A stretch of DNA of 64,000 nucleotides from an uncultured Bacilli bacterium (GTDB lineage Bacteria > Bacillota_I > Bacilli_A > RF39 > UBA660), in assembly GCA_944358855.1 (NCBI GenBank), contig CALVSC010000001.1, positions 2,385-66,384 on the forward strand, given 5' to 3'. Below are positions 33,096 to 62,443 of this stretch, piece after piece (positions within the stretch are counted from its first letter, which is position 1; the number at the start of each line of letters is the position of its first letter). Position numbers and translations under genes: made by a program. The notes beneath the pieces were generated by a model. It was not told the DNA's origin and searched no databases. It saw only the letters and a program-made list of their open reading frames with translations.

Positions 33096-33486
33096 AATTC
33101 TTATCGTTCTTATTTTGTTTTTGATACCAATTATTTTATTTCCAATTAATAATTATGTTGAATTAAATGATTTGGTTATTATTCAAGGTATTGGATTAGA
33201 TTGTAATAGCAATTATGGTCTTTATTTACAAGAGGTTATTCCTATGAAAAGTGATGGTAGTATTCGTTATCATTATCGTTACTATAAAGCAGAATCTAAT
33301 CAATTGGATAAGGCGTTTTTAAAGATAAAGAAAAATAGTCAAAATAAGTTTTATGTAAAGAAAGCTAAATATGTTGTTACAAATTGTAAAAGTAGTAAGA
33401 AAGTAAGAGATTATTTTCATTTAGAGGATATTACAATTTATCATGAAGATAAAGTTTTAGACAAATTAAAAGAGATTGTTAGTTAA
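33082..33486 (+). CDS. short GerAC-like fragment (possible truncated C subunit)
   Basis: Signal-anchor followed by LVIIQGIGLD, resembling the N-terminus of Ger(x)C lipoproteins. Only ~134 aa where ~370 is typical. A GGGAGG RBS is present. No B-subunit gene is nearby. Confidence 0.35.
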   Translation: MKIIKILIVLILFLIPIILFPINNYVELNDLVIIQGIGLDCNSNYGLYLQEVIPMKSDGSIRYHYRYYKAESNQLDKAFLKIKKNSQNKFYVKKAKYVVTNCKSSKKVRDYFHLEDITIYHEDKVLDKLKEIVS

Positions 33487-36676: not shown

Positions 36677-37084
36677 TTACTTTTCTTTAAAATTTTCTAA
36701 AAGATGTTTTGTTTTATCATAAATTCCTAATTTATTATCTACTCCTATATTATTTATGATGGTTTTCTTTATTCCTTGATAATGAACATGTAATTCGAAT
36801 CTTGCATCAAATATTTCGATAGTTTCATATTCTTTATTTATAATTTCTTTTTCTATAAAATCTGTTAGTTCTTTATACTCTTCATTTGATAATTTTCTTA
36901 CATTTTTTATATAAGAGTTGGTGGTATCATAATAGAATTGATATTGATATAACTCTTTTTCTTTTGTTACTAATATCCCTTTATATCCACTGGTTCCAAT
37001 TAGTCCACAAGATTCATTTACTTCTATCATACTTGATTTACGAATTTTATTTAATTCAGCTAAATAAACTTCATTTTTATTCAT
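36677..37084 (-). CDS. hypothetical protein
   Basis: 135-aa ORF with no recognised motif. Confidence 0.4.
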   Translation of the reverse strand: MNKNEVYLAELNKIRKSSMIEVNESCGLIGTSGYKGILVTKEKELYQYQFYYDTTNSYIKNVRKLSNEEYKELTDFIEKEIINKEYETIEIFDARFELHVHYQGIKKTIINNIGVDNKLGIYDKTKHLLENFKEK

Positions 37085-37096
37085 GTTTTATCTTCC

Positions 37097-38305
37097 TTAT
37101 TTTTTTACTTTTTCTGGGGATTGTTCTATTTGATTATTACTGATAATTGCAAATTGTTTTTGTAGAGTAGTAAGATATTGGTCTTTATTTTCTAGAATAG
37201 CACTACTTATTTCTTCCGTTGTTCTACCGACTAAGTCTCTAGGAGATAGATCTTCATCTAAGGCGTTTTCTTTGGTTTCAATTTTTTGTTGGAAGTTTTC
37301 TATTCCTTCTTGCATAAGACTAACTATATCGTCTTGTGGTAATTCTATATTTATCCAATCTATTATTCTTTGAAGTTCTTCAGAAGTTATAGCACCTTCT
37401 ACTATATTATTTAATTCTATTTCTTTTTCTTCTAGTATGCTATTTTTTGGTGGTTTTTTACGCCTTGGTAAAGTTGTTTTTTGATATTGAATGGTTGTTG
37501 TGTTATCTTTTTTAAGTACTTTTAATATATGATCTTCCCCTTCTTTCATACCATCGAAAATAAGAACCGCTTTATTACTGGTATCACTTAATTCTGGACA
37601 TTTTGCTGATATAATTACAAAAGCAGAGTTTGGAGTAATTGTATTTTGTTTGTTTTCGATACAGATTCCTGATAAGTTTAAGCATACTCCTGGTACGGCA
37701 ATATTATCTAGTCCATACGTAATATTACCATTAATATTGTGGGTATATTCATACATTCTATCATTATGACTTATAAATTCTTTACCAATTATTGCATAGG
37801 TATACATTTCTTCATATTCTTCTACGCCTGGAATATATTCATATCGTTTGGTAAGGAGTGGTTGAGAATATTTTTTTCCGTTATATGGTACTTTCTTGGC
37901 AAGTCTTACTACTATACTGTTTCCCATATTTGATGTTTCCATTGATATGGAACTTTCTTTTTCTATGATTAATTCATAGTCATCTTTGGTGGTAGTAATT
38001 CTCGTTATGATTGGGGTTTCATCTCCTATATGATAAACTGTCTCTATTTTTTGTCCTTCTTTTTCGGAAACAACGTCAATATATTTTTTGCTACGACTGT
38101 AAATATTTAATAATTCTACTCTTCCAGTATATTTTCCTGTGATGTGGGTGTTTGTTTTCCTGTCGATAATTTCTATAGATGGTGTTTGTTCATCAAAGTT
38201 TGTTATTTGATAATCTTCTAAACGTTCTTCTTCTATAGGAATATGAAATCTACTTGCTAGTTTTAGTATTAGTCCCTTTTTTTCTTCTAATGTTTTATTT
38301 TCCAT
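37097..38305 (-). CDS. hypothetical protein
   Basis: 402-aa ORF with no recognised motif. Confidence 0.45.
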   Translation of the reverse strand: MENKTLEEKKGLILKLASRFHIPIEEERLEDYQITNFDEQTPSIEIIDRKTNTHITGKYTGRVELLNIYSRSKKYIDVVSEKEGQKIETVYHIGDETPIITRITTTKDDYELIIEKESSISMETSNMGNSIVVRLAKKVPYNGKKYSQPLLTKRYEYIPGVEEYEEMYTYAIIGKEFISHNDRMYEYTHNINGNITYGLDNIAVPGVCLNLSGICIENKQNTITPNSAFVIISAKCPELSDTSNKAVLIFDGMKEGEDHILKVLKKDNTTTIQYQKTTLPRRKKPPKNSILEEKEIELNNIVEGAITSEELQRIIDWINIELPQDDIVSLMQEGIENFQQKIETKENALDEDLSPRDLVGRTTEEISSAILENKDQYLTTLQKQFAIISNNQIEQSPEKVKK

Positions 38306-38357: not shown

Positions 38358-39176
38358 TCAGTTTTTGTGCTGGCTTAGTTCAATATTTAGTTGTTTTAAA
38401 AGAGCGGTTTGTCTTGTCGTTCTACTTTGTTCTTTTGGTGATATAGTGTCTTGGTAATTTGCATATTGTATTTCTACTTCTGCTGTTTGCCATTGTTGTT
38501 CTTGTAGTGTTTTAGCAAGTTCTTCTTCTATTTTGGATTTTGGTTTTCTATTACTTCCATTTCTTAGCTCTGTTTGTAATCCTAATCTTTCAAATTCTAT
38601 ATCTAATAATTCGCTACAAGTTGATAAATATGTCTGATAAGCGTTCATTCTAGTCAATTTGTTTTCAAAACTAGAGATAGAAATAATTCCACTTTGGTAG
38701 TTTAGTTTGTCTTGAAAAGCTATTTTCTTAGTTCTCTTTTGTTCTTCTTCCACTAAAAGATGAGCCCAGGTTAATTTTAATTTTTCTATTCTTGCTATTA
38801 AATTAGGGTCTTCTAGAGATTCCATATAAGAAATTTCTTCGGGCATTACTTCTATTAATATTAATCTTAATATATCGTATATATCATATACTGTTTCATC
38901 TTCAATTATGTATGATTGCACTTCGTCCATTAATTCATAGAGTATTTCAGAAACTGTAAAGTCTTCTGCAGAGGGATTTTTTTTGTTATCTTTATTGAAT
39001 ACGGAAGTGCTTTTTAAATAATTTTTGGCATGCTTAATTGTTTTAGATAAAACTTCTTCTTGATCATCTGGTGTTAGAAATTGAAAGTTTTCACTTAATA
39101 GTTCTAACTCTTCTCCTTCGTATTCTCTATCTTCTATTAAAATGTTTATGGCAGAAATTATTTCGTCTTTTAACAT
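38358..39176 (-). CDS. member B of a tandem paralogous family (unknown function)
   Basis: Shares the C-terminal module W..EVxIQYANYQ...IS..E with five other genes in the window. Confidence 0.5.
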   Translation of the reverse strand: MLKDEIISAINILIEDREYEGEELELLSENFQFLTPDDQEEVLSKTIKHAKNYLKSTSVFNKDNKKNPSAEDFTVSEILYELMDEVQSYIIEDETVYDIYDILRLILIEVMPEEISYMESLEDPNLIARIEKLKLTWAHLLVEEEQKRTKKIAFQDKLNYQSGIISISSFENKLTRMNAYQTYLSTCSELLDIEFERLGLQTELRNGSNRKPKSKIEEELAKTLQEQQWQTAEVEIQYANYQDTISPKEQSRTTRQTALLKQLNIELSQHKN

Positions 39177-39231
39177 ATGCTTCCTCTTTTCTTGCCTTTA
39201 GTATAACATTTTTTTCGTAAAAGAAGAAGTT

Positions 39232-40104
39232 TTATCCTTTTTGATTTATTTTTGGTTCTTCAAATATGTTTTGACCTATATTTAAGCTTATGATTTGATC
39301 TAGAGCTTCACCCATTTTCTTTGTTGCTTCTTCTTCAGAAATAGTTCCTTCTAACATTTGTAGTTTTGCTTGATAGATTGTGGTTGTAGATTGATAATAT
39401 GTAATGGCAGTATTGATTTTATCTTGTTCGCTTTCTGGCATTACTGGGCTTCTAGATGATATCGTGTGTAATTTGCCATATTGTAATAGTGTTTCTTGTT
39501 TTTGAGATAGTAATTCCTGTAGATTCTGGTTAGATGTTAAATATTGTCCTCTTGCTTCTTCCGTTTCAAGAATGTGGTGGTATTCTTGGGAAGTGATCTT
39601 ATTTTTTTGATAATCACTTTGAGCTTTTTTTATTGTTTTGGTTGATTGGTTATAAGCTTCTAAGTAAGTAATTGTTTCCTTTTGCATGGTTAGTTTTATT
39701 TTACTTTCAGCTATTTCAATACCTTCTAGTGTTGTTATACTGTGTGCAGGATTATATAAGTTAATTAATTCAATTTGTTGTATTTCTGCTTCAGTTGCGG
39801 CAAGTATAGCAGCATTATATAAAGTAGCAAGTTCATTTATTTCTCCTAATGCAATTGCTTGGCTATTGATATCAAGTAAGTTTTTAGCAAGGATTGTAGA
39901 AAAAGGTGTTGATGTTGTTACAACTTTCCCTTTTTGAAATGGTGTAGATTTTTTTGTTAAATTTAATATATAAGTTATAAAACTTTGTTGTAAACTATCT
40001 AATTCTTCTTTTGATAATTCTTTTATTTTCTCATTTAATTCTTCTATTTTATTTTGATCTAATTCTTCTGTTATTAATATTTTTTTTAATGTTTCATTAT
40101 TCAT
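39232..40104 (-). CDS. member A of the same paralogous family
   Basis: C-terminal IYQAKLQMLEGTISEEEATKKMGEAL matches the family module. An AGGGAGGAA RBS is present. Confidence 0.5.
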   Translation of the reverse strand: MNNETLKKILITEELDQNKIEELNEKIKELSKEELDSLQQSFITYILNLTKKSTPFQKGKVVTTSTPFSTILAKNLLDINSQAIALGEINELATLYNAAILAATEAEIQQIELINLYNPAHSITTLEGIEIAESKIKLTMQKETITYLEAYNQSTKTIKKAQSDYQKNKITSQEYHHILETEEARGQYLTSNQNLQELLSQKQETLLQYGKLHTISSRSPVMPESEQDKINTAITYYQSTTTIYQAKLQMLEGTISEEEATKKMGEALDQIISLNIGQNIFEEPKINQKG

Positions 40105-40190
40105 AATATTTCCTCCCTTTAATTAATTAAAAAACCTATGCTTGTATTGCATAGGTCTATATATTCTATATGATATATTTATGACTTTAC

Positions 40191-40236
40191 GCAGATACAA
40201 GCACGACAATAACACTTGCATCTGCGATTTTTTATC
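40191..40236 (+). terminator. terminator-like hairpin + U-tract inside a divergent intergenic region (candidate leader/sRNA 3' end)
   Basis: gcagat(a)caag-13 nt loop-cttg(c)atctgc, followed by gaTTTTTTat. Confidence 0.4.
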
Positions 40237-40269
40237 GCGTCCTCAAGTGTCTTCGCAATCTACGTCTAC

Positions 40270-40320
40270 GGATAATTGTTGTCATAAATGTCATCATATT
40301 GTCCTTCCTTTCTTTTTTTT
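40270..40320 (+). terminator. second terminator-like hairpin + long U-tract in the same region
   Basis: ggataat-...-attgtcc stem followed by ttcctttcT8. Confidence 0.3.
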
Positions 40321-40427
40321 CACACTATATGTGTGAGTAATGCTGATTTTATCAGATTTTTATTGTTTTGTCAATTTTTTGTTTTTTGTGAAGTATGATA
40401 CAATAGCTTCAAGGAGGGTATCGTAGA

Positions 40428-40916
40428 ATGAACTGTTCTAAAAAAGAAGTTGATGACTTTTTTGGTTGCTTGTTCCAGTATGACGATAGATTAAAAAGTG
40501 TTTTTTTCGGTTCGTTGCTTGATAATAAGACTCCTCAAGAAGGAGTTGACGATGCTTTGAAGTATCTTTCTAGTATTGGTGTACAAATTAGAAGACCTGC
40601 AATTTTAACTGTTGTAGATAATCGTGTTTATAATATTTGTAATCAGCGTTTTGTTGACCTTGGACGAGAAATGATAATTTGTTATGATAATTTAACTAAT
40701 TATTATGATGAATCTAATGCTAGATTAAGATATTTTTCTTATGATGAAAATAAAGAATTAAGTGAAGCTACTGTTTTATTGGTTGTTGATGATCCTGAAA
40801 TTATTTATGCCTGGGAAGACACTCATGTTAGTCAAGAAGAAAGCTCTGATCTAAGTAAGGCTTTTCTTGATCAGTTTAGAGGTAAAACATATACTTTATC
40901 TAACAAAAATCAATAG
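40428..40916 (+). CDS. hypothetical 162-aa protein
   Basis: Clean ORF with an AAGGAGGG RBS. A TGaTACAAT -10-like element lies ~25 nt upstream. Confidence 0.5.
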   Translation: MNCSKKEVDDFFGCLFQYDDRLKSVFFGSLLDNKTPQEGVDDALKYLSSIGVQIRRPAILTVVDNRVYNICNQRFVDLGREMIICYDNLTNYYDESNARLRYFSYDENKELSEATVLLVVDDPEIIYAWEDTHVSQEESSDLSKAFLDQFRGKTYTLSNKNQ

Positions 40917-40923
40917 TTATTTG

Positions 40924-40956
40924 TTAAAAGGACACATATGTGCCCTTTTATTTTGT
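40924..40956. terminator. bidirectional intrinsic terminator between convergent genes
   Basis: ggacacat/atgtgccc near-palindrome flanked by A4 and T4aT4. Confidence 0.45.
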
Positions 40957-40987
40957 TAATAATCTTTTAATAGTTTTTAATTATTTT

Positions 40988-42478
40988 TTATTTATGAATA
41001 TTAGAATTAGATTGTTTGGAAAAATGAAGCTTTGATAATAATTCACTAGTTATTTCTTCTGGGGATTTCTCTTTGGTATATTGAGTGATGGTCTTTAAAG
41101 CGTAATTACAATGACTAGAAAGAAAATGTCTATTATCTCTTTCTTGATTACTACCCTCTTCTATTTTTTTTCTTTGGTTTAGAATTGTTAGCGATTCTTC
41201 TTTATCTGTACTAGGCATTAATAAAACTACATTATGAAATTGTTGTATTAATTGTTGTATTTCTAAAAACATAATAGGATTTTCGTAGATAGAATGTCCT
41301 GCTCCAAAATCTATAATGGTGGGTTCTGATAAATTGGTTAATACGGATCCAGTTAAGAAAAATTCAAATTCTTTATTGTTTTTAAAGTTTTTGCGTTGTT
41401 GATATAGATATGATAGCTGTTTTCTATTGTCTAATGAGATTTTTGGCATATCTAATGTACTGGCTAGATGGTTAGAAATTGTTGATTTACCTGCACCCAG
41501 GGGGCCAATTAAAATAATGGAGTTATTTAGAACATCGTCACTTACTTGTTTATTTACAAGGCTTTCCATTTTTCTAATTGTTGTATATATGTCATAAATA
41601 TCTAAGCCAATTTCAATAAAAGATCTATTATCTTGTAGGCATCGCATTTTTTCTGTTTCTATTAATTCTTGTGGAATATTTTTTATGAACTTAGAATAAG
41701 TGTCAAATAAGAATAAAATTTTTTCTTCTTTTGATTTTTGAAATATTTCTAGTTTTTCTTGTAGTATAGAAGAAAACTCTGGATAATATTTTAGATATTG
41801 CGTTAATGCAGAACTTATAAATTGTTCTTTTGATGGATCTAACATTTGAAGGATAATAAACTTATCAAATATAGTAATTAGGTCTTCTTGACTGAAAGGA
41901 ATAAAGTTTGGATCTTTGGTACAAGCAAGTAAATTTACTTTTTCTAATAGGTTGGGATGTAAGAATAATAGTCTTTCAAATGTTTCATGAGTAAGGGGTC
42001 CTTTTTCTCTATTTGCTTGTCTTACTTCTGTTTCTATTAAATCCGTATCATCTAATGGGATATTTGCTGGTCTGTTAGGATAATGGTAGATTTTAATGAG
42101 TCCTTCTTCTTGGAGTTGTTTTATTTTTTGATAGACGTTTTCTATTTCTTCTTCTCTGATAATGTCTACATCTTTTTTTGAAACCACTTCAACAAAGCCA
42201 GTTTTAATATCTTGAAAACTATCACTACTTAAAGTATAAATAGATGCACTATTATTAAACATTGTTTCTAACCCTCTAGGTATTCGTTCTACTAGTTGCC
42301 ATGGTTGGTCAGAGGTTGTTTTAAATAATGAATAAGTCATATCATCTCCTGCCCTACCTGCAAAGATAATAGCTAGTTCTTTATGAGGTGTTGCGTAAAC
42401 ATAATTTCCATGGGTTGATTTATGAGGTTCTAGTTTCTTGATTCCACTTTTTGCACTTCCATGATATAAATATTCCAT
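40988..42478 (-). CDS. fusion protein: N-terminal Arr/KptA-like ADP-ribosyltransferase-fold domain + C-terminal P-loop small-molecule-kinase-like domain
   Basis: N-terminus LYHGSAKSGIKKL...HGNYVYATPHKELAIIFAG...SASIYTLSSDSFQDI matches the H/aromatic/acidic core of rifampin ADP-ribosyltransferase (Arr) and the Tpt1/KptA NAD-binding lobe. The C-terminus has Walker A IILIGPLGAGKSTIS and hhhhD IIDFGAG. Confidence 0.5.
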   Translation of the reverse strand: MEYLYHGSAKSGIKKLEPHKSTHGNYVYATPHKELAIIFAGRAGDDMTYSLFKTTSDQPWQLVERIPRGLETMFNNSASIYTLSSDSFQDIKTGFVEVVSKKDVDIIREEEIENVYQKIKQLQEEGLIKIYHYPNRPANIPLDDTDLIETEVRQANREKGPLTHETFERLLFLHPNLLEKVNLLACTKDPNFIPFSQEDLITIFDKFIILQMLDPSKEQFISSALTQYLKYYPEFSSILQEKLEIFQKSKEEKILFLFDTYSKFIKNIPQELIETEKMRCLQDNRSFIEIGLDIYDIYTTIRKMESLVNKQVSDDVLNNSIILIGPLGAGKSTISNHLASTLDMPKISLDNRKQLSYLYQQRKNFKNNKEFEFFLTGSVLTNLSEPTIIDFGAGHSIYENPIMFLEIQQLIQQFHNVVLLMPSTDKEESLTILNQRKKIEEGSNQERDNRHFLSSHCNYALKTITQYTKEKSPEEITSELLSKLHFSKQSNSNIHK

Positions 42479-42639
42479 TTTATCACCTACTTTATTACTT
42501 TTATGAGAATTATGTTTTTTAATATATTTACATTTTATTTGCTTGAACCTATTTCTATAAATACTATATCATAAGTAAATACTTTGGCAAATATTTTTAG
42601 TGTGCTTTTGCTTTTATACTAAAAAATTGGTAAAATAAG

Positions 42640-43626
42640 ATGAGAATTATTCTTGGAGAAATACTTTGGTGGTGTTGTAAAATGGATAATTTAGTTTCTA
42701 AAATCAATTTTTTTAGTAATAATGCATTATTTGAGGAAATAAAGGATAGCAATTCTGGAGCTATATTAAAAAAAGTTACAGATAATAATCAAACTTATTT
42801 TTTGAAGATTGTTTTTAAAGAAAATGTAGATGTTGTTAAAATAAAAAAAATAATAGAAATTTATGAAAAATATAATATCAATACTATTAAACTACTTGAT
42901 TATGGATATATCGATAATCAAGTATATTTAATTTATAATTTTATAGATGGCAAAGCTTTAAATACAGTCTATGATCAATATAGTCCAAATGATTATTATC
43001 ATATGGGTTTTAATATTGGTGATGGTTATCGAAAAATTAATTCAACACTTGAGTTTAACAATTATTTTATTAATGATTACAATATAAATGACTTAGTAAA
43101 TTACTATATAAAGTCTTTTCAACAATTGTATAATGGAAAACTATCTTATATAAAAGATATAATTTCAGAAGAAAAAATGAATGATATAATAAAAAGAATG
43201 AAAAGCCTTATTTCTTCCTTTGATAATGAAAAAAAAGTGTATATTCACGCAGATATGCACCCTAAAAATATAATGATTGATTGTAATCATAACTTATATG
43301 TAATTGATATTGAGTCTTTTTGCATTGATTATTTTATCATGAATGTAAGATGGTCTATCGCTGCTGCTTTTAAAAATAAAGAAAATAATGAATTCTTTAA
43401 AGGTTTTGTTAATGGTTATTATAATAATAATATTCCATTAAATTTTAATAAACAATTAATACTTATTTTAATATTTAATTTTATGGAACATACTATTGAA
43501 TTCAGTAAAACGAAAGATAAAGATTTTATTGTCAATTACGTTTCCCGGATAAATAAGATATTTAATAGTATCGATTTGTTTCAGGATGATAATATTTTAG
43601 AGAAGACAACTATATTTGATTCTTAA
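42640..43626 (+). CDS. aminoglycoside-phosphotransferase (APH)/choline-kinase-fold kinase
   Basis: Catalytic loop IHADMHPKNIMID and Mg-binding YVIDIE, plus an N-lobe K (YFLKIVFK). The true start may be the ATG at 42682. Confidence 0.65.
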   Translation: MRIILGEILWWCCKMDNLVSKINFFSNNALFEEIKDSNSGAILKKVTDNNQTYFLKIVFKENVDVVKIKKIIEIYEKYNINTIKLLDYGYIDNQVYLIYNFIDGKALNTVYDQYSPNDYYHMGFNIGDGYRKINSTLEFNNYFINDYNINDLVNYYIKSFQQLYNGKLSYIKDIISEEKMNDIIKRMKSLISSFDNEKKVYIHADMHPKNIMIDCNHNLYVIDIESFCIDYFIMNVRWSIAAAFKNKENNEFFKGFVNGYYNNNIPLNFNKQLILILIFNFMEHTIEFSKTKDKDFIVNYVSRINKIFNSIDLFQDDNILEKTTIFDS

Positions 43627-43645
43627 TTTTTATCTCATAAGGGTT

Positions 43646-44728
43646 TTATTGAATGTTTTTTAAAAATTTGTTTATACTATGATACCATTTAAACATACCT
43701 AATTTTCTTTCTGCATATTTTTGAAATTCTGCTTCGCTATAATTTTTATTAATACTTTTCCATCTTTTTAAAACTCTTTTATAACAAGTTTCTATACTTG
43801 TTCTCATTACTATGATTTGTCCTTTTAATATAGAATAATCCTTTATATTTCTATATTGTGCGGAATCAATAATTATGATTTTATTACTATTTTTAAAATA
43901 TTCTAAAACTTTTAGATAGAATTCATCAAAATTAGTAAACAAATAATCCTTTGGTGTATCTTTAAATATTTCTCGTAATTGAACACACTCTTTATTATTG
44001 GATGGTTTATTACTAAAAACAATATCCGTATCTATTACAATATAATTATCATCATTTATATACTTTTTACTATAATATGATTTTCCACTACCAGATTCAC
44101 CTGTAATATTTATAATTTTGTCTTTAGTTATAGACTTTATATATGGTTTTTTATCTATAAATCTGCTTATCAATAAATCAGACTTTATTTCATATAAATA
44201 GGTTTCAATTTCTTCTACTAGATTATTTTCTTCTTTTTTATTGCTTTTGTTTCCATGCAATATAAAATCATTCCATTCTTCTAATGCTGTATCAATATTT
44301 TCTTTTTTTATTTTATCTTTTAGTATTTGATATGCTGTTTTTTGATAGTTCATAATACTTACTACAGCTAATGTTTTATAATATGATTTTTCTGGTATTT
44401 TCGAAATTTTGTAATAATGAAGAGCTGATTCGTCATTTACTTTTTTGGGATTACTTATCATTATTTTATTTGTTCTATATATTGTTGTGGCACCCTCTAA
44501 TTTAATATTTTCAGCATCTTCAGGTATTGTAACATCATAAATTGTATCTCCTCGATGTAACCATCTTACTATGCAGTCCTCACTACAATAATTAAAACCT
44601 CCGAAGTCTTTAGCTGTTGTAGCGTTGGGCTTCCAATTGGTTGCGATATTTACTTCATTAATTTTATATTGATAATTTGCTTTGGCTCCTGAAGTAGTGC
44701 CATACAAAACTTTTACATATTTTTTCAT
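43646..44728 (-). CDS. paralogous fusion: degenerate Arr-like ART-fold domain (His lost) + P-loop kinase-like domain
   Basis: N-terminus VLYGTTSGAKAN...TIYDVTIPEDAEN parallels Arr FYHGTKANL...YIYIVEPTGPFEDD but lacks the His. C-terminus has Walker A ITGESGSGKS and IIIDSAQ. Confidence 0.4.
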   Translation of the reverse strand: MKKYVKVLYGTTSGAKANYQYKINEVNIATNWKPNATTAKDFGGFNYCSEDCIVRWLHRGDTIYDVTIPEDAENIKLEGATTIYRTNKIMISNPKKVNDESALHYYKISKIPEKSYYKTLAVVSIMNYQKTAYQILKDKIKKENIDTALEEWNDFILHGNKSNKKEENNLVEEIETYLYEIKSDLLISRFIDKKPYIKSITKDKIINITGESGSGKSYYSKKYINDDNYIVIDTDIVFSNKPSNNKECVQLREIFKDTPKDYLFTNFDEFYLKVLEYFKNSNKIIIIDSAQYRNIKDYSILKGQIIVMRTSIETCYKRVLKRWKSINKNYSEAEFQKYAERKLGMFKWYHSINKFLKNIQ

Positions 44729-44761
44729 TTTTATATCCTCTATTCTTTTTTATTAAATATA

Positions 44762-45274
44762 TTAATTATTAAGTTTTTGCAAAAGTTCTTTAATAAATGT
44801 AATTTCTTTTTCATTACATTTTTCTTTTTGTACGATGATAATTTCATGTTTTGTTTTTATATAAAAATTATTTTCTGTTTCGGTTATTTTTTTGATTTTT
44901 GTATATTCTATTTTTTTAATTATATGCTCGGTTTCTTCTATTAAGTAATTGTCATAAAAATTTATAGTGACTTTTTTATCTAATTCACCATCTTTGCAAT
45001 AATCATTATATTGTTTTTTTATAGTTTTCCGATAAGAAATCCTATAATAGATACCACATCCAATGGTTACAGCAAATTCCCAAAAAGCAACGTCTATTAA
45101 TGTACTTTGAAGAATAATACCAGCTAGGGTTGTTACTATAAATATTAAAGCACTAGTAATTATTGTTAAACTAAAACAATATTTATTAACTAATTGCAAT
45201 GAAAAACGATAATACTCTTCAAAATCTAATTCCGTAGTAGTAGAAAATATCTTGTCATTTTTAATGTAATTCAT
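44762..45274 (-). CDS. YcxB-like membrane protein (two TM helices + PH-like domain)
   Basis: FEEYYRFSLQL...two hydrophobic helices...short C-terminal domain. Pattern recalled for the YcxB-like family. Confidence 0.4.
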   Translation of the reverse strand: MNYIKNDKIFSTTTELDFEEYYRFSLQLVNKYCFSLTIITSALIFIVTTLAGIILQSTLIDVAFWEFAVTIGCGIYYRISYRKTIKKQYNDYCKDGELDKKVTINFYDNYLIEETEHIIKKIEYTKIKKITETENNFYIKTKHEIIIVQKEKCNEKEITFIKELLQKLNN

Positions 45275-45474
45275 AATATCACCTTAATATGCTTTTAAAT
45301 ATAGTATATATTCTATCTTTGTAAATGTAAATGACTAAACTTTTTTTACGAAATCTTATTTATGTTTTAATAAATGAGGTGATTGTATTAAGTAGAATTA
45401 CCCTTCTAATGTATCTGTATTACTTTGTAGTATTAATAAACTAGATGTCCTTTTACTCTATGTTTTCCTTCGTA

Positions 45475-45506
45475 TCAAAAAAATCAATCCTTTTACGGAT
45501 TGATCT
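45475..45506 (-). terminator. intrinsic terminator downstream of the tRNA pair
   Basis: On the - strand: aatcaatccg-taaaa-ggattgatt followed by T7. Confidence 0.5.
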
Positions 45507-45553
45507 CTATTTAAAGTGCTTTTCTTTTGGAAAAGTTCAACTGGATTTTCTAA

Positions 45554-45627
45554 TGGTGCCGAAAGACAGAATTGAACTGTCCGCTGATCCTTACCAAGGA
45601 TCTGTTTTACCACTAAACTATATCGGC
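45554..45627 (-). tRNA. tRNA-Thr (anticodon GGU)
   Basis: Hand-folded cloverleaf GCCGATA-TA-GTTT-AGTGGTA-AAAC-A-GATCC-TTGGTAA-GGATC-AGCG-GACAG-TTCAATT-CTGTC-TTTCGGC-A-CCA. There is one U-U mismatch in the acceptor stem. Confidence 0.7.
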
Positions 45628-45638
45628 GTTTTTATTAT

Positions 45639-45713
45639 TGGTGTTCGAGACGGGAATCGAACCCATATCTTCTCCGTCGGAGGAAGAAATTCTATCCGTT
45701 AAACTACTCGAAC
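45639..45713 (-). tRNA. tRNA-Arg (anticodon CCG)
   Basis: GTTCGAG-TA-GTTT-AACGGATA-GAAT-T-TCTTC-CTCCGAC-GGAGA-AGAT-ATGGG-TTCGATT-CCCGT-CTCGAAC-A-CCA. The acceptor stem is perfect. GU pairs occur in the D and anticodon stems. Confidence 0.65.
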
Positions 45714-45755
45714 AACTATATACATTATATAATTTTAAAAATAAAAACACAAGAA

Positions 45756-46631
45756 TTATTTTCTTGTGTATACTTTTCTACTTTCGTTTCTTTGAGCTAT
45801 GATTTGGTGTTTTCTGTTTTCTGCTTGGCCAATTTGTGTAATAGCATCTTGATTGGAAATTCTTCCTTCTGAAAGTAATAACCATGTTTGACTAGAGATT
45901 ACTTCTTGTTCTGCAAGTTGAACTCTATCATAGGCTTCTTGCCATCTTTCGTCTTGTCTTTGTTCGGTAGGAGAAACGTTTGTTCTATTTAACCTATTTT
46001 CTATTTCTTCTTTTTTTGTTCTTTCTTCTCTTAGTGCTCTTTTCGCAAAAACATAGCTTTTTCTTCTAGCTTCTGTTCTGATAATATCTTGTAGGTCATC
46101 ATCCGTTATTAGTCCTTGTGCATGTGCTTCTTTACTATTTGTAAGGGTTCTTTCTATTTGTTCTAAATCTTGTTCTGTTTTTACTTCGTTATGTATTCTA
46201 TCAAGTTTAATTTTTGAGTTTAATAAACTTATAAAACCAGGAGTTTGTTCTTGATGTTTATTACGTCCTTTTATAATTGTTTTTCTAATTAGTTTTCTTT
46301 CTTCTTCGATTACATCTAATTGTACTTTTCTAAGTAATGGTACTATTTTGGCATTTATATTATATTGTCTTACTCTTTTAATGACAGAGTTTAATGCTGT
46401 TAAAGTGGATGGTGTTACTAGTTGGATTCTTGTTTTTTGTTCTAGAGCTGATAAAACAGTACTTCTATTTGCTACATAATGATTGGTATATACTTCTAAG
46501 GCTGCTTTATATATAGCTTTTGTTTTTCCATCTAAGGTATCATAGCTATCGCTTATACTTATGATTTCTTCTGGTTGTAATTCTGTGATGTTATATAATT
46601 TTTTTATTTGTTCTAATAATTTGTCTTTCAT
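45756..46631 (-). CDS. member C of the tandem paralogous family
   Basis: C-terminal ...VQLAEQEVISSQTWLLLSEGRISNQDAITQIGQAE matches the family module. The N-terminal L..YNI..L.PEEI pattern is also shared. Confidence 0.5.
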   Translation of the reverse strand: MKDKLLEQIKKLYNITELQPEEIISISDSYDTLDGKTKAIYKAALEVYTNHYVANRSTVLSALEQKTRIQLVTPSTLTALNSVIKRVRQYNINAKIVPLLRKVQLDVIEEERKLIRKTIIKGRNKHQEQTPGFISLLNSKIKLDRIHNEVKTEQDLEQIERTLTNSKEAHAQGLITDDDLQDIIRTEARRKSYVFAKRALREERTKKEEIENRLNRTNVSPTEQRQDERWQEAYDRVQLAEQEVISSQTWLLLSEGRISNQDAITQIGQAENRKHQIIAQRNESRKVYTRK

Positions 46632-47548
46632 CTATATTCCCCCTCAACTTTGTGCTTGGTATATTCTATTGTTTTTTCATCTGTTGTTGTTTCTATTTTA
46701 AATTGATGTAATAAAGATTCCCCTATTAATTCTTGTGCATCATCATCACTTAACTCCCCTATTGCTACTTGATATTTAGCATATTGAATATTTACTTCTT
46801 CTTGTTGCCATGTAATCATACTTTCGTAAGACTTTAATTCTATTTGTTCTTCATCTGATAGTTTTATTCCTTGTAGTTCTTTTCTACCTTTTTTTAAATA
46901 TAAATCGTTTTGTTCCGATTGTAGATAAGTATAGTAGATAGATGCTGCGATATATTGTGAATAAAGGGTTACTTCTTTTTTCCTTTTTTCGTATTCTGCT
47001 GGTGATATTTTGCCATTATCAAATTCCTTTTCATTTATTGTGTCTTGCATATCAATAATCTCTGTTTGTCTTTGGAGATTTATTATAACCATTTCATATC
47101 CTATTTTATTATAGGCATATGCAAGAGCTAGTTTAACATATGGGTTTTCGGGATTTTGATTTTTTAATTCTTGTATCTTTTTTTGTTCTTCTCTTAGGGC
47201 ATATCTTACAACTCCTCGTAAATATGCAGTTAGAGATTCTACTTTGTATGTTTGACCTAAATAGTCATAGATATCATTTAAATTAAATACGATTTCTGGC
47301 GTGATTGGATTTACTTCAAATACATCTAAATTTGTTTCACTTTCTACATTAAATGGTGAATTAGTAGCAATATATCTATCTACATAATCTTTTAGTCTTT
47401 GTTCTAGATTTTTTCTTTCTTTTTTTGATGTTGAAAAAAATATAGTGCTTAGTTCATCAATTTCATCGTCTGTTATTGGATCTTTAGATAAGGCAATTGT
47501 AAATAAGTCGTATAGACTTTTCTTGGTTTTGTCCATATTATTTATCAT
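46628..47548 (-). CDS. member D of the tandem paralogous family
   Basis: C-terminal WQQEEVNIQYAKYQVAIGELSDDDAQELIGESLL. Its stop overlaps the next gene's start as ATGA. Confidence 0.5.
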   Translation of the reverse strand: MINNMDKTKKSLYDLFTIALSKDPITDDEIDELSTIFFSTSKKERKNLEQRLKDYVDRYIATNSPFNVESETNLDVFEVNPITPEIVFNLNDIYDYLGQTYKVESLTAYLRGVVRYALREEQKKIQELKNQNPENPYVKLALAYAYNKIGYEMVIINLQRQTEIIDMQDTINEKEFDNGKISPAEYEKRKKEVTLYSQYIAASIYYTYLQSEQNDLYLKKGRKELQGIKLSDEEQIELKSYESMITWQQEEVNIQYAKYQVAIGELSDDDAQELIGESLLHQFKIETTTDEKTIEYTKHKVEGEYR

Positions 47549-48434
47549 TCCTTGGTGTTTTTTGATATGTTTTTGGTGTAGGGTTTGGTGTTAGTGCTTT
47601 ATTTTGAATTTCATTACATTGCTCTTCTGATATAATTCCGTTTAAATAATCACAGTATGCTGATTGACATAGTATCGTTCTATTACAATAATCAAGATCT
47701 TTATGCATTTGTTCAATATCGTCTTCTGAAAATGGTTTATCTCTTCCAGTTGATGCACTCATTTCATTTAAAAAGATAGCACGATTATAATTTGTTCTTA
47801 AACTGATTCTTTCTTTTTCTGATAACAGTCTAGTCCTTTCAGCGTTTAATATTTTTACTTCTTTATGATATTCCGCAGCTTCTAAAGAGCGTGTTGTGAA
47901 TCCTTGTTCTAGCTTTTGTTTAGTACCTTCTATTATATATATTCTTGTGTTTATTACTTCTGTATCTAAATCAGATGATAAAGAAAGATCATCTAAAGCA
48001 AGCATTACATAATAATCTGGATAAGTTAGTAAATCTTTTCCTAAAGATTTTCTTCTTTTCTTAATCGTATCTAATTCTTCTTTCATAGCTCTTTGTTTTA
48101 GTGAACTAACTAATAAGTAAACATCCTCACCTGGATGATAATAGTCTAATAAGGTGTCTAGGTTTTTACATATTTTTTTAGATGGAAGATCTTCTTTTAT
48201 AGCTGGCATATAAAATCTATCTTGACCGTTTTCATCACTATAAATACTTTCACTAGCAACTCTTTTTTGTATTACTTGTTCTAATTCAGACATCATTTTT
48301 TGTTTATGAAATACTCTTATTTTAGCAGGTAGTTTTTGATGGGTTAACATAAACTTATAAATTTCTTCAGGGTTTTTCATTGTCATGATGTTTGATAGAT
48401 AAAAAATAATATCATCTTTTTGCATTCTCTTCAC
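47538..48434 (-). CDS. member E of the tandem paralogous family (divergent)
   Basis: C-terminal YLNGIISEEQCNEIQNKAL, with a family-like N-terminus. Overlaps D by 11 nt. Confidence 0.45.
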   Translation of the reverse strand: MKRMQKDDIIFYLSNIMTMKNPEEIYKFMLTHQKLPAKIRVFHKQKMMSELEQVIQKRVASESIYSDENGQDRFYMPAIKEDLPSKKICKNLDTLLDYYHPGEDVYLLVSSLKQRAMKEELDTIKKRRKSLGKDLLTYPDYYVMLALDDLSLSSDLDTEVINTRIYIIEGTKQKLEQGFTTRSLEAAEYHKEVKILNAERTRLLSEKERISLRTNYNRAIFLNEMSASTGRDKPFSEDDIEQMHKDLDYCNRTILCQSAYCDYLNGIISEEQCNEIQNKALTPNPTPKTYQKTPRNDK

Positions 48435-48520
48435 CTCTATTTTTCCATAAATAAAAGTCTTTATTCAAGACTTTACTAATTCATGATACGCTTATATTTT
48501 AACGTTCTTTTCTTATTTTG

Positions 48521-49444
48521 TCAAATATTGCGCTTTGGCAATTTTTGCTTTTTGGAGCCTTCATTGTGTTGAGAAGTTTCAATCATTGCTTGTTCTAGAA
48601 GAGATGCTCCAATTACTTCTCTTCTTTCTTCTTCTGGTAAGTTATGTGATAGAAATTGCCAGTTTGCATAGGTAATTGCAACTTCTTGTCTTAACCATTC
48701 TGCATGGAGTTTTAATTCACGTTCATGTAAGATACAATTAGGATTAATATTGGCACCAAGTAATTCATACTCATTTTGATTAGATAGATGGTAAAATGCA
48801 TAATTTAAATTGTAATCTGTAAATTCTACGATGGTATCCAAGTAGTCCATGTAGGCTTGTTCTTGTTTTAAATAGTCTAGATATTCTTGTTCTGATATAG
48901 CTTTGTGATCATACTGGAATCTTAAGTTGTGTTGTTTATAAATGGTATTATGTTGTTGTTCTGATACTTCTGCTTTCTTTTTATGGGTTTCTAACATTAG
49001 TTTTTTAAATGCTAATAGTCTTTGCAATGATTTGTTATTTGTAATCATTGGTTTTAGTTCTTTCATTTTAGCATTTAAAAAATTTAATTCTTCTTGATAT
49101 CCAATAATATATACACGATTCATTAGGCGTACAATATCATTTTCCGTTTCTTCTTGATCAGGATCTTCTATTACTGTTTTCATGATGGATTCTTGTTTTG
49201 CTAGTAATTGTTCCATGGTGGTGGTTGGTTCTATGTATTGTAATACATCTGTTGGAAGTATAGCAAATTGACTATTGGTTCTAATGTATGATTTCATAAA
49301 ACTTTTTAGTTTTTCTTCTAGTTCTGCTCTTGTATTTGGTGTTTGAGCTAAAAATGTATTGTTGATATCTATAACGGTCTCGGGAGGGATGGGTTCTTTG
49401 GTAAATAATCTTTGTAACATGTGATATAATTCTTGTTTTTTCAT
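48521..49444 (-). CDS. member F of the tandem paralogous family
   Basis: C-terminal WLRQEVAITYANWQFLSHNLPEEERREVIGASLL. N-terminus is similar to D. Confidence 0.5.
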   Translation of the reverse strand: MKKQELYHMLQRLFTKEPIPPETVIDINNTFLAQTPNTRAELEEKLKSFMKSYIRTNSQFAILPTDVLQYIEPTTTMEQLLAKQESIMKTVIEDPDQEETENDIVRLMNRVYIIGYQEELNFLNAKMKELKPMITNNKSLQRLLAFKKLMLETHKKKAEVSEQQHNTIYKQHNLRFQYDHKAISEQEYLDYLKQEQAYMDYLDTIVEFTDYNLNYAFYHLSNQNEYELLGANINPNCILHERELKLHAEWLRQEVAITYANWQFLSHNLPEEERREVIGASLLEQAMIETSQHNEGSKKQKLPKRNI

Positions 49445-51009: not shown

Positions 51010-51609
51010 CTATTTACCACTTGTTTTTAGGTTTTCTTTCATTAAATCCCCTACTATTTTTTCTAGTTTTTTATTTTCTTGTTCTAAATCATCTGTTACT
51101 TTGTATGGTTTTCCAAATCTAATTGTTAAGTTTTTACTTCTAAATTTGTAATCTCCTGTAATACCAAAGGGAACGATTGTAGCGTTTGTTTTTTTAGCCA
51201 TAGAGACAGCTCCAAATTTAAATGGTAATAAGAATTCTTTTGTTTTATTTCTAGTTCCTTCAGGGAATAGTCCTAAAGCAAAACCATTTTTTAATACTTT
51301 TAGAGCTTCTTCTGTTGCATGAGGATCTTTTTTACTTCTATCTACGGGAATACAGCCTACCATTTTGAAAAACCAAGCAAATTTGCCATCAAAATATTCT
51401 TTTTTTGCCATATAGTGTATTGGCCTTTTGGTAGAGATAATTGCTAGACATTGGTCATATAAATGTTTGTGGTTTCCAACAATTAAGATTGGGCCTGTTG
51501 TTGGAATGTTTTCTTTTCCAATGATTGTTGGATGATAATACCATTTAAATATAGGACCTAATATCGGTTTTAATATACGATATGGCAACATTTTATCTTT
51601 ATTTTTCAT
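51010..51609 (-). CDS. lysophospholipid (1-acyl-sn-glycerol-3-phosphate-type) acyltransferase
   Basis: HX4D motif VGNHKHLYDQ and the FPEGTRN block. Confidence 0.7.
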   Translation of the reverse strand: MKNKDKMLPYRILKPILGPIFKWYYHPTIIGKENIPTTGPILIVGNHKHLYDQCLAIISTKRPIHYMAKKEYFDGKFAWFFKMVGCIPVDRSKKDPHATEEALKVLKNGFALGLFPEGTRNKTKEFLLPFKFGAVSMAKKTNATIVPFGITGDYKFRSKNLTIRFGKPYKVTDDLEQENKKLEKIVGDLMKENLKTSGK

Positions 51610-53323
51610 CTTTTCTACTTTCTTCTTGTAGTTTTTTAAAGTCTACTTTACCTATTAGAGTTTTTGGTAAAGATTTTCTATATTCGAATTCTTTTGGTAT
51701 GGCATAACTTGCGAGATTTTTCTTACAGTGATCTTTTATACTTTTCTTTACGGTAATTGGACTATATCCATTTTTTAATACGATGTAGGCCTTTGGTACT
51801 TCAATTTTATAGGGGTGTGGTATACCGATTACAGTACATTTTAATACAGCTGGGTGTTCTTCAATAATTTGTTCTACATATGCTGGGTAGATATTGTATC
51901 CACTAGATATAATCATTCGTTTTAGTCTTTGTTTATAATAAATTACACCATCTTCATCCATCATACCAATATCACCAGTATGTAACCAGATAAGTCCATC
52001 TTTATGGATTTGTAACATTTCGTTTGTTTCTTTTTCATTATCTAAATATCCAAGCATTACAGTTGGACCATGAACACATATTTCTCCGTCTTCTCCATAT
52101 GGTACTTCTTCCTGGGTCCCAGGTTTTACAATTTTAATTAAGTTGCTAGGGAAAGGAATTCCGATACTTCCTTGTTTATCAGCATCTCCATAAGCAAGAC
52201 ATACAGCCGCAAGAGATTCTGTCATTCCATATCCTTGAGAAATAGAGATTTTAGCTCCGTGGTTAGCAAGATATACATTAATTCTTCTTTCTAGAGATGG
52301 TGATAGACTATCTCCTCCGGATATCATGTATTTTACCATACTTAAATCTAAGTGTTCGTTTTTGGTATTGATTAAGGCTTCATAAAGCGTTGGTACACCA
52401 AACATGATATTTGGCTTATACTTTTCAATTAGTTTATCAAACTTTTTAGCATTAAACTGTGGTATTAAAATTACTTCACATCCTAAATCTAGTGGAGCAT
52501 TAATAGATACTCCTAGTCCAAAACCATGAAAAACTGGCATAATAGCTAATACTCTTTCTCCAGTACCTAGTTTTGAAAAAATAACTTTTGCTTGTTCTGT
52601 TAAAGCGTTAAAGTTACCGTTTGTTAGTACAATTCCTTTTGGTGAACCAGTTGTTCCTCCACTATGTAAGATTACTGCTGGAGTATCTTTTGTAGTGTGA
52701 GCAACTTCTTTTCCTGGATAAGTTAATCCTTTTCTGATAAAGTCTTTCCAATATACATAGTCTTCACTTCTTTTTGGCTTTTTTACTTTGTACCCTTGTG
52801 TTACTTGATAGCCAAAAGCTAATAGGAAATTCATTGAATCACTAGCAGAAGTAACAATGGTCTTATAGACATCTGTATCCTTTATAATGTTTTTTACTTT
52901 TTCATAACATATATCAATCATTATTAACATAACACTATGAGTTGATGTTAGATAGTGTTTGATTTCTTCTTCTCCTGATAGAGGGTGAATCATATTCGCA
53001 ATGGCCCCTATTTTATTAACAGCATAAAAAGCAACTAATGCTTCTGGTGTATTTGGCATACAGATTGTTACTACATCACCTTTTCTTATTCCTTGACTTT
53101 GAAAAGCACGAGAAGCTTGTTCTATCTGATGGAGAAATGTCTTATAGTCAATTAATTTACCATAATAATTAAGGGCTGTTAGTTTTTCTCTTCCTTCACT
53201 ACATTTTACTAACATTTCATAAATAGAAATGTCTTCTACTTTTATTTTTCGATCTTCTTTTTTGTAATATTTTAACCAAGGTGCTTTAATTAATTTTTGT
53301 CTAATCAAATTAATTACGTTCAT
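51599..53323 (-). CDS. AMP-dependent acyl-CoA/acyl-ACP synthetase
   Basis: AMP-binding motifs LHSGGTTGSPKG, GYGMTE, TGD and the IISSGYNIYP region. Confidence 0.75.
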   Translation of the reverse strand: MNVINLIRQKLIKAPWLKYYKKEDRKIKVEDISIYEMLVKCSEGREKLTALNYYGKLIDYKTFLHQIEQASRAFQSQGIRKGDVVTICMPNTPEALVAFYAVNKIGAIANMIHPLSGEEEIKHYLTSTHSVMLIMIDICYEKVKNIIKDTDVYKTIVTSASDSMNFLLAFGYQVTQGYKVKKPKRSEDYVYWKDFIRKGLTYPGKEVAHTTKDTPAVILHSGGTTGSPKGIVLTNGNFNALTEQAKVIFSKLGTGERVLAIMPVFHGFGLGVSINAPLDLGCEVILIPQFNAKKFDKLIEKYKPNIMFGVPTLYEALINTKNEHLDLSMVKYMISGGDSLSPSLERRINVYLANHGAKISISQGYGMTESLAAVCLAYGDADKQGSIGIPFPSNLIKIVKPGTQEEVPYGEDGEICVHGPTVMLGYLDNEKETNEMLQIHKDGLIWLHTGDIGMMDEDGVIYYKQRLKRMIISSGYNIYPAYVEQIIEEHPAVLKCTVIGIPHPYKIEVPKAYIVLKNGYSPITVKKSIKDHCKKNLASYAIPKEFEYRKSLPKTLIGKVDFKKLQEESRKDEK

Positions 53324-53894
53324 AATAGTCCTCCAATTTTTTATTAATTTCTTTTTGAAATTTTTTATTTTCTTCTTCTAGATTATTTGTTATAGTTCTT
53401 GGTTTTAAAAATTCTATTTGTATACTTTTTCCAATAATACGATATTTTTCTGTGATAACTAAGGGTACGATTGGGGTTTTTGTTTCATAGGCCATCTTGA
53501 TTGCTCCCATTTTAAAAGGTAGTGTTTCTTTCCTTGTTTTTCTATTGATTGTCCCTTCTGGAAATATTCCTATTACCTTTTTTTCTTTTAATGTTTTTAT
53601 TGCACTTTCTAAGGCTTCATGGTCATGTATTTTTCTATTGACAGGTATTGCACCTGCTCCTATTAAAAATGGCTTTGTAATGCCTTTAAATAAGGAATCT
53701 TTGGCTAAAAAGTGTACTTGTCTTGGAGATAGTGCAATTAACATAATAGGATCTAACCATTTTGTGTGATTTCCTGCTAAAATATAGTTTCTATCCTTTG
53801 GTATATTTTCTATTCCTATTACCTTAGGATGAAATAATATTTTAAATAATATTGTCACTATAGGTTTTATTATTTTATAAAACGTCGTATCCAT
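53310..53894 (-). CDS. second PlsC-family acyltransferase
   Basis: AGNHTKWLDP (HX4D) and the FPEGTIN block. Confidence 0.7.
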   Translation of the reverse strand: MDTTFYKIIKPIVTILFKILFHPKVIGIENIPKDRNYILAGNHTKWLDPIMLIALSPRQVHFLAKDSLFKGITKPFLIGAGAIPVNRKIHDHEALESAIKTLKEKKVIGIFPEGTINRKTRKETLPFKMGAIKMAYETKTPIVPLVITEKYRIIGKSIQIEFLKPRTITNNLEEENKKFQKEINKKLEDYYERN

Positions 53895-57593: not shown

Positions 57594-57602
57594 CTTTACC
57601 TC

Positions 57603-58454: not shown

Positions 58455-58509
58455 TTCCGGTACTTTTATTGTAACGTATTTTTTATAAATGTAAAGAAAA
58501 AAGAGAGAA

Positions 58510-58893: not shown

Positions 58894-58954
58894 ACTTCCA
58901 CCTCTTTTTCCCCTCTATTATACTTATTTTTTTTATTTTTGCAAGGGATTTTCT

Positions 58955-59530: not shown

Positions 59531-59563
59531 ACTCTATATTTTTATTTTTGGCAAGAAAAGAGC

Positions 59564-60589: not shown

Positions 60590-60642
60590 GTTATTTTCCT
60601 CTTCATTCTAACGGTTTTTGTGATTACTATAGCACCAGGTTA

Positions 60643-61587: not shown

Positions 61588-61596
61588 GTTTTTTAC

Positions 61597-62395: not shown

Positions 62396-62443
62396 GTTTT
62401 CACCTCGCTTTTATTATAGCACAAAGCATGAGAAAGAGGAGTT

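Follow-up and report, generated by a model that had tools for sequence, protein, structure and literature searches.

A lineage-restricted family of six predicted helical paralogues in an uncultured Bacilli bacterium, two of them behind a predicted arginine-responsive attenuator

In the 64,000-nucleotide stretch of contig CALVSC010000001.1 (assembly GCA_944358855.1) analyzed here, referred to as the window and originating from an uncultured Bacilli bacterium, six genes named A to F form two arrays, B-A and F-E-D-C, on either side of a tRNA and kinase gene cluster (Table 1). Sequence comparison indicates that all six belong to a single, lineage-specific family that matches no known protein family and whose members are soluble, cytoplasmic and, in structure models, all-alpha. 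The B-A pair lies behind a leader with the features of a classical leader-peptide attenuator, predicted to allow read-through under a shortage of charged tRNA-Arg. The reading that we favor, tentatively and at somewhat less than even probability, is that the proteins are non-enzymatic helical-bundle subunits, distinct paralogues of which act together, and that the B-A module is coupled to arginine status.

The initial annotation had proposed a common ancestry for these six open reading frames (ORFs), and both their positions, all on the minus strand, and their relationship were borne out. Pairwise BLASTP within the window linked D to F (57 bits), A to F (42), A to D (41.6) and B to D (30.8), with weak scores for C and E. 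A hidden Markov model (HMM) built from A, B, D and F was searched against the 109 stop-to-stop reading frames of at least 80 amino acids (aa) in the window, and picked up C with an E-value of 7.7e-12. Paralogue E was not significant with profiles made from the window only, in which it was the best non-member (E-value 0.05), and hhalign gave P=0.005 over 258 collinear columns; with a 13-sequence profile including eight foreign homologues, it scored 17.7 bits, with an E-value of 8.5e-6 among window ORFs. In a shuffle test it reached 19.1 bits, against 9.3 bits for the best of 2000 shuffles, and its orthologue in a related locus (L003), 36% identical to it, scored 66 bits on the 13-sequence profile. 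Because paralogue E is significant with the profile that holds foreign homologues, and because of the score of its L003 orthologue, sequence evidence places all six ORFs in one family, five through direct profile scores and E through the orthologue-enriched profile. The paralogues are approximately 15-25% identical to each other and are collinear from end to end over approximately 290 columns. The motifs quoted earlier for a shared C-terminal module were recovered in the alignment, while the N-terminal '(D/E)PI' pattern, which had been attributed to all members, is present in D and F only. Neither the rest of the window nor the variable islands of related loci yielded a further family member. 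The paralogues share no repeats at the DNA level, and hence this genome gives no sign of recent duplication or gene conversion among them.

Hydropathy analysis identified no transmembrane, signal or hydrophobic segment in the six proteins, for which the highest Kyte-Doolittle 19-residue mean does not exceed 1.12 and grand average of hydropathy (GRAVY) values lie between -0.5 and -0.8. Scans of the six paralogues and of two downstream orphans, X and Y, against Pfam, NCBIfam, PADLOC and PHROG gave nothing significant, and no Pfam family was common to more than one of 14 scanned members. The absence of signal peptides and of known domains noted at the outset was thus corroborated by hydropathy and by the Pfam and NCBIfam scans. 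AlphaFold models of D (m92d2adc1a110; predicted local distance difference test score, pLDDT, of 74) and of B (m3aefc25f161c; pLDDT 83.8, the best value, and predicted template modeling score, pTM, of 0.79) are both all-alpha, and each protein would be composed of an N-terminal helical domain followed by an elongated, antiparallel helix bundle at the C-terminus. Structure searches gave no significant match; those obtained were generic long helical bundles with 3-10% identity over approximately 125 aligned residues.

Only one residue, a Glu (E121 in D, E107 in B), is invariant across 14-21 members, and one Tyr is near-invariant, being found in 89% of members; the remaining conserved columns are largely hydrophobic. 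Since so few conserved polar residues are present, we infer that the proteins are non-enzymatic binding or scaffold subunits. A 'G-x-I-S/T-x-x-E' motif, noted initially as 'G.IS.EE', occurs twice per protein, at the corners of long helices (loops ~167-171 and 253-256 in the model of B). It is best read, on the basis of the model, as a common helix-capping corner, in which a Gly helix C-cap leads into an S/T-x-x-E N-capping box. The two motifs do not mark a significant internal repeat, as examined by profile self-alignment (P=0.18). In the form 'G-x-I-S/T-x-E-E-(Y/F)', this twice-repeated corner resembles the consensus of SHOCT (PF09851; PMC3581485). SHOCT, however, is a short, free-standing and usually C-terminal two-helix module, whereas the family motif lies within a large bundle in the model of B. 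We thus rejected SHOCT as a candidate, its single match being in D (residues 176-192, E-value 0.0063, 16.7 bits versus a gathering threshold of 27; 1 of 14 members at an E-value of at most 5); the capping-corner reading would explain why a sub-threshold match is seen in D alone.

The size of approximately 300 aa, the all-alpha fold and the presence of multiple paralogues would also suit RNPP/Rgg-type transcription regulators or peptide receptors, or helical substrates exported by a type VII-like system, and PrgX is indeed among the Foldseek matches, albeit with an E-value of 3.4 and a probability of 0.04. We consider either role highly improbable. None of the 14 scanned members matched HTH, HTH_3, TPR, WXG100 or LXG, the one sub-threshold TPR_20 match (in D, E-value 0.11) is not significant, no structural match reached significance, and no secretion-system or EssC-like gene is present in the regions examined.

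The family has a very narrow distribution. A five-sequence HMMER profile searched against 1.84 billion representative proteins gave 17 matches, five of which are the window's own proteins, eight full-length foreign homologues, three fragments and one a repetitive protein that is probably noise. All interpretable matches come from a few uncultured, low-GC gut Bacilli, and the source databases name the members 'hypothetical protein' at best. The carriers include UMGS1700, a metagenome-assembled genome (MAG) deposited under 'uncultured Tenericutes', the uncultured Bacilli MAG bin73, and human-gut metagenome contigs, one contig being 1.42 Mb long; the locus is present on roughly 70 contigs. A word-indexed search with D, X and a 17-sequence profile returned only near-identical proteins resembling those of the window; a genome scan with D alone gave no match, and no relatives of the B subfamily were found in viral contigs or in JGI metagenome contigs.

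The region upstream of B contains a promoter, followed by an RBS (ribosome-binding site) and an upstream open reading frame (uORF) with a run of Arg codons, then alternative helices that exclude one another, the last being an intrinsic terminator directly before B (Table 1). The Arg codons of the uORF are of mixed type (CGU, AGA, CGA and AGG). Approximately 240 nt upstream of B are near-invariant in an alignment of three species, with ~95% DNA identity across species, whereas the proteins encoded beside this leader are only 38-50% identical; nine distinct copies of the leader were compared. Interspecies differences in the uORF are mostly synonymous; one strain lacks the first four uORF codons and uses an internal ATG. 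The sequence of the 5' hairpin varies among species while its pairing is kept. The leader folds more stably than its shuffled counterparts (z=-4.9), with calculated energies of -14.8, -15.9 and -21.2 kcal/mol for helices 1:2, 2:3 and 3:4, and of -12.5 kcal/mol for the terminator hairpin; all four are able to pair in 6 of 6 aligned sequences. Rfam 15 contains no match to the leader, full-text literature searches gave no earlier description of it, and an nhmmer search of the window and of related loci gave no copies beyond one per locus.

We modeled the effect of ribosome position on these six sequences with an equilibrium partition function, treating the RNA as unavailable for pairing as far as 12 nt beyond the A-site codon, an assumed footprint. 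When the A-site lies on Arg codons 1-3, the antiterminator forms with P of 0.71-0.98; when the ribosome is further along the uORF, the terminator is predicted with P of 0.88-1.0, and a leader without ribosome also favors the terminator (P of 0.71-1.0). An earlier version of the model, in which segment 1 was masked for any stalled ribosome, had yielded termination on stalling; it was replaced by the per-codon footprint model, which gives the opposite result at the first Arg codons. In the mechanism that we propose, a ribosome stalled at the first Arg codons would leave segment 1 free, allowing helices 1:2 and 3:4 (the antiterminator) to form and transcription to read through. A ribosome that moves on would cover segment 1, so that helix 2:3 and the terminator form, and the terminator would also form in the absence of a ribosome. 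B and A would form one operon controlled by ribosome-mediated attenuation, and this module is thus predicted to be switched on when charged tRNA-Arg runs short; B itself is nearly Arg-free.

Leader-peptide attenuators are known from trpL, hisL and leuL of enterobacteria and from the Leu-rich ilv-leu attenuator peptide of S. aureus. The B-A leader shares with them a short ORF with a run of codons for one amino acid, mutually exclusive helices, a terminator, and a choice governed by ribosome position; it differs in the genes that it would regulate, which belong to an orphan helical family here and encode an ArgE/DapE-type deacylase in a related genome. The Leu-rich peptide of S. aureus is cited in PMC13009471. 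Arginine supply is also read through Arg codons by two known uORFs, orf34 of Salmonella speF (PMC6386406), with Rho and RNase G as effectors, and rbfL of S. aureus (PMC13009471), which works by occluding the RBS; unlike these other read-outs, the B-A leader has a five-segment layout with helices 1:2 and 2:3, a 3:4 antiterminator and a terminator. The likeness concerns the B-A leader alone and not the family proteins. The leader is predicted, from the model, to be a classical leader-peptide attenuator, and it may be a new arginine-responsive one, which would add to a mechanistic class already known.

A second genomic context for this leader was identified in the human-gut contig ORPF01000027 (L021 4840-6925), which belongs to the assembly that also gave UMGS1700. 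In this contig the leader stands before genes for an M20 deacylase of the ArgE/DapE family and for a 243-aa GNAT acetyltransferase, and the whole module interrupts a tsaE-tsaB-rimI-tsaD cluster between rimI and tsaD. The Arg content of the B orthogroup is 0.3-1.3% in every species and that of the L021 deacylase is 0.8%, as compared to a mean of 3.8% for window proteins. Such low values, in both B and the deacylase, fit expression under arginine limitation.

These features may also be explained if the proteins form an abundant structural or membrane-associated helical lattice, such as a scaffold of the BAR, phasin or ESCRT-III kind or a sporulation layer, in which Arg-poor B replaces Arg-rich paralogues when arginine is limiting. 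The low Arg content of B compared to that of C (Table 1), a bias that is kept in all B orthologues, and the Arg-codon attenuator in front of B are in line with such a role, as are the lipoprotein gene and the lipid-metabolism neighbors (acyltransferases, an acyl-CoA ligase-type enzyme and an esterase) in conserved synteny, and the GerA and GerAC genes in the window. On the other hand, gene order shared by close relatives says little about function, and A is co-transcribed with B and is not Arg-poor. The structural matches, for their part, are those expected of any long helix bundle: I-BAR/IMD bundles (IRSp53, 2ykt; MIM, 2d1l) are 8-9% identical to the family model, unrelated bundles such as G-protein-coupled receptors, designed proteins and colicin Ia score nearly as well as I-BAR/BAR, and none of the 14 scanned members has a BAR or IMD match in Pfam. 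A helical lattice is thus distinctly unlikely. Improbable, in our view, is a more specific scheme in which a previously unknown cytoplasmic helical assembly has the nearly Arg-free B, with A, replace or supplement the Arg-rich C and E when Arg-tRNA is low, its tRNA-proximal subunit being freely exchanged among strains; this would be an amino-acid-sparing switch that recalls the zinc-sparing paralogues of ribosomal proteins, with attenuation as its means of control.

For the preferred reading, in which distinct subunits act together, gene arrangement and orthology are central. Translational coupling, which the initial annotation had described, was supported. The start of C and the stop of D overlap in an ATGA. 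D and E overlap by 11 nt if D starts at 47548; the alternative start at the ATG at 47536 (302 aa), used by database gene calls, leaves a 1-nt gap. For E itself, a start at the ATG at 48425, giving 295 aa, is more likely than the GTG. A tree of 21 members contains six orthogroups, A to F, and one divergent 282-aa member, and every window paralogue has orthologues in other species. A shares 50% identity with its orthologues of the UMGS1700-like group and 28% with its bin73 counterpart; the corresponding values are 38-47% for the B orthologues, ~39-40% for the C orthologue P0010, 38% for the D orthologue P0007, and 25-26% for the F orthologues bin73_3, ERZ162_3 and SRR219_3. Copy number is 3-6 among species and constant within species. 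Since the genes are tightly coupled (E-D-C and B-A), and since distinct orthogroups have been retained, the paralogues would act together as hetero-oligomers.

The position of the array is also conserved. In the UMGS1700-like group the gene order is lipoprotein genes, the 282-aa member, B, A, an F-type gene, tRNA-Arg, tRNA-Thr, a variable island, a metallo-beta-lactamase-fold gene and an M23 peptidase gene. The bin73-like order is lipoprotein genes, B, A, an F-type gene and the tRNAs; L003 carries E, D, C and tRNA-Arg. In the window the order is lipoprotein, F, E, D, C, tRNAs, island, B, A, X, Y, metallo-beta-lactamase-fold gene and M23. Sequence comparison thus places the array locus between a lipoprotein gene and the tRNA-Arg/tRNA-Thr pair, which is its conserved downstream boundary in the other lineages examined. 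Both of the other lineages in which B and A are seen have them contiguous with the array upstream of the tRNAs, and therefore the split into two arrays is probably a secondary rearrangement specific to this species. X and Y may share a transcript with B-A, but neither belongs to the family and the related species lack both; no homologues of X beyond near-identical copies were found in 5.8 billion proteins.

Table 1. Coordinates of the paralogues, leader elements and neighboring features in the window (nt, nucleotides)
Feature	Position	Strand	Comment
Paralogue F	48521..49444	minus	307 aa; first gene of the upstream array; strong RBS AAGGAGGA
Paralogue E	47538..48434	minus	298 aa from GTG; most divergent member
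Paralogue D	46628..47548	minus	306 aa; tightly coupled to E and C
Paralogue C	45756..46631	minus	291 aa; Arg-rich (8.9%)
Paralogue B	39232..40104	minus	290 aa; first gene behind the leader; only 2 Arg (0.7%)
Paralogue A	38358..39176	minus	272 aa; 55 nt downstream of B
B-A operon leader	40105..40374	minus	from promoter to RBS of B
-35 TTGACA	40374-40369	minus	leader promoter, sigma-70-type, 17-nt spacer
-10 TAAAAT	40351-40346	minus	leader promoter
5' hairpin	40336-40320	minus	leader
21-codon uORF	40297-40232	minus	encodes MMTFMTTIIRRRRLRRHLRTR; eight Arg codons; RBS GAAAGGAAGG
Segment 1	40251-40238	minus	leader
Segment 2	40225-40211	minus	leader
Segment 3	40204-40191	minus	leader
Segment 4	40148-40138	minus	leader
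Intrinsic terminator, followed by a U-tract	40158-40133	minus	25 nt before RBS of B
Promoter-like site	48524-48496		F-E gap
Terminator-like hairpin with T-run	45747..45769	minus	overlaps 3' end of C
tRNA-Arg(CCG)	45639-45713	minus	
tRNA-Thr(GGT)	45554-45627	minus	
Variable island	40381..45553		between tRNAs and B leader; no family members
YcxB-like gene	44762-45274		variable island
P-loop protein	43646-44728		variable island
APH-like kinase	42640-43626	plus	variable island
496-aa protein	40988-42478	minus	variable island; C-terminal shikimate-kinase-like P-loop (residues 328-484)
162-aa orphan	40428-40916	plus	variable island
Orphan X	37097-38305	minus	402 aa; directly after A
Orphan Y	36677-37084	minus	135 aa; after X

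The kinase cluster between the arrays, described initially as the only enzyme-rich unit of the region, is a variable island at this tRNA position. In a contig of the same species (L001), 2.2 kb of additional DNA follow immediately on the tRNA pair (L001 12007-14200, versus window ~45530). In L009 and L010 a 2.8-kb insert encoding an ABC ATPase and other proteins separates tRNA-Arg from tRNA-Thr, and other species have different islands at this position. The tRNA-Arg/tRNA-Thr pair is thus a hot spot for insertion and recombination, at which the kinase cluster represents one alternative island among several. An Rfam search of 36-51 kb identified the two tRNAs and no other known RNA family. As separate observations on the island contents, the extra segment of L001 encodes a 280-aa protein starting MGTWGPGLYQDD, and the 496-aa protein of the window, whose N-terminal ~300 residues begin MEYLYHGSAKSG and are unrecognized, has as neighbors a 360-aa protein with a C-terminal P-loop and the APH-like kinase.

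The hot spot also affects the family itself. Between strains of the UMGS1700-like group, orthogroups A and B are under purifying selection (dN/dS, the ratio of non-synonymous to synonymous substitution rates, of 0.11 for A and 0.22-0.26 for B, with dS ~0.1, range 0.09-0.11). The third, F-type and tRNA-proximal gene is only 32% identical in aa sequence between strains, with a dS of 0.87 and a dN/dS of 0.78, while the genes beside it are 96-97% identical; DNA identity collapses ~75 nt into the gene and recovers partially near its 3' end. This pattern indicates that the tRNA-proximal copy was replaced by another allele or paralogue together with the hot spot, and did not merely evolve fast in place. 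The fast evolution claimed initially is supported in part, by between-species identity (25-50% for the family, versus 52-91% for flanking proteins), copy number and the F-type swap; A and B are under purifying selection and have stable one-to-one orthologues. Differences between the window and L001 (8 synonymous and 0 non-synonymous in F, E and B; 1 synonymous and 7 non-synonymous in D and C) are too few to interpret.

These rates bear on the immunity or decoy interpretation put forward in the initial annotation. Under it, the genes would encode immunity proteins, antitoxins or decoys within a fast-evolving conflict system; each paralogue would neutralize or mimic a different effector, and the hypervariable tRNA-proximal copy would track incoming toxins or phage. 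Like the immunity arrays of polymorphic toxins (LXG, Rhs, CdiA), the family consists of tandem, diverged paralogues, here in 3-6 copies among species, with a terminal copy that varies between strains and orthologues that are far more diverged than flanking genes; it also adjoins a tRNA-linked variable island, and the high dN/dS of an allele swapped between strains that are 96% identical next door would fit such a role. We nevertheless consider it unlikely. No toxin, LXG, Rhs, CdiA-like or mobility gene is located near the arrays, among the window ORFs outside ~1-21 kb and in 22 related loci; no immunity-family match was obtained in PADLOC, PHROG, NCBIfam or Pfam, and viral contigs gave no relatives of the B subfamily. 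Position and orthogroups are conserved, copy number does not vary within a species, and A and B are constrained. The high dS of the swapped allele suggests that an old allele was brought in with the hot spot, and speaks against local positive selection. Typical immunity proteins are smaller than the ~300-aa, two-domain members of this family, and control of B-A by an amino-acid-type attenuator, a metabolic or stress type of regulation, would be unusual for immunity genes. Were this interpretation correct, the family would be a new immunity family, but the present data do not favor it.

We thus return to non-enzymatic subunits that act together, with B-A coupled to arginine status, as the preferred reading. 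The ancestral locus would have lain between the lipoprotein gene and the tRNA-Arg/tRNA-Thr pair, at the edge of the hot spot, and this location would account for three features: copy number changes, the copy next to the tRNAs is replaced as a whole, and the array has been split secondarily. Several points weigh against the preferred reading. Homology links the family to no function, the fold matches are non-specific for helical bundles, and fast divergence and allele replacement fit a conflict role equally well. Within the operon only B, and not A, is Arg-poor, and F-E-D-C does not lie behind the leader in this genome. Regarding the leader, the switch helices display one-sided G-U/A-U changes only, with no double compensatory changes among these highly similar leaders, and covariation in them does not exceed that of shuffle controls. 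The predicted direction of regulation comes from an equilibrium model with an assumed footprint, and in 5 of 6 sequences (all but L008) this model favors the antiterminator for a ribosome held at the stop codon as well.

Other features of the window were also recorded. A GerA gene (E-value 1e-135) and a GerAC-like spore-germination gene lie on the plus strand at 31692-33486, which suggests a spore-forming or formerly spore-forming Bacilli lineage, of note since a relative was deposited as 'uncultured Tenericutes'. Two PlsC-type acyltransferase paralogues (51010-51609 and 53310-53894), 43% identical, flank an AMP-binding gene of the acyl-CoA-ligase type, and this block has 86-91% aa identity in related species. 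On the minus strand at 56559-63400, eight ORFs (344, 283, 127, 191, 341, 314, 160 and 318 aa) without significant Pfam match, interrupted by a MerR-type regulator gene (61597-61965), are related neither to the A-F family nor to each other by BLASTP. The GC-skew profile of the window has no turning point, and does not bear out the 'terminus-proximal' placement given initially.

A tandem array of lineage-specific paralogues beside a tRNA hot spot is a familiar phenomenon, the mechanistic class of the leader is known in Firmicutes from the Leu-rich ilv-leu leader, and the finding is confined to a small uncultured clade. Within this clade of small-genome gut Bacilli, about which little is known, the family is lineage-restricted and fast-evolving, and is placed by no sequence or fold library. 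The locus documents a tRNA-Arg/tRNA-Thr hot spot that exchanges both islands and the adjacent family member. The leader links these orphan genes to the ArgE/DapE-type deacylase operon of a related genome, and the predicted Arg-codon attenuator provides the family with a testable regulatory input, the supply of arginyl-tRNA.

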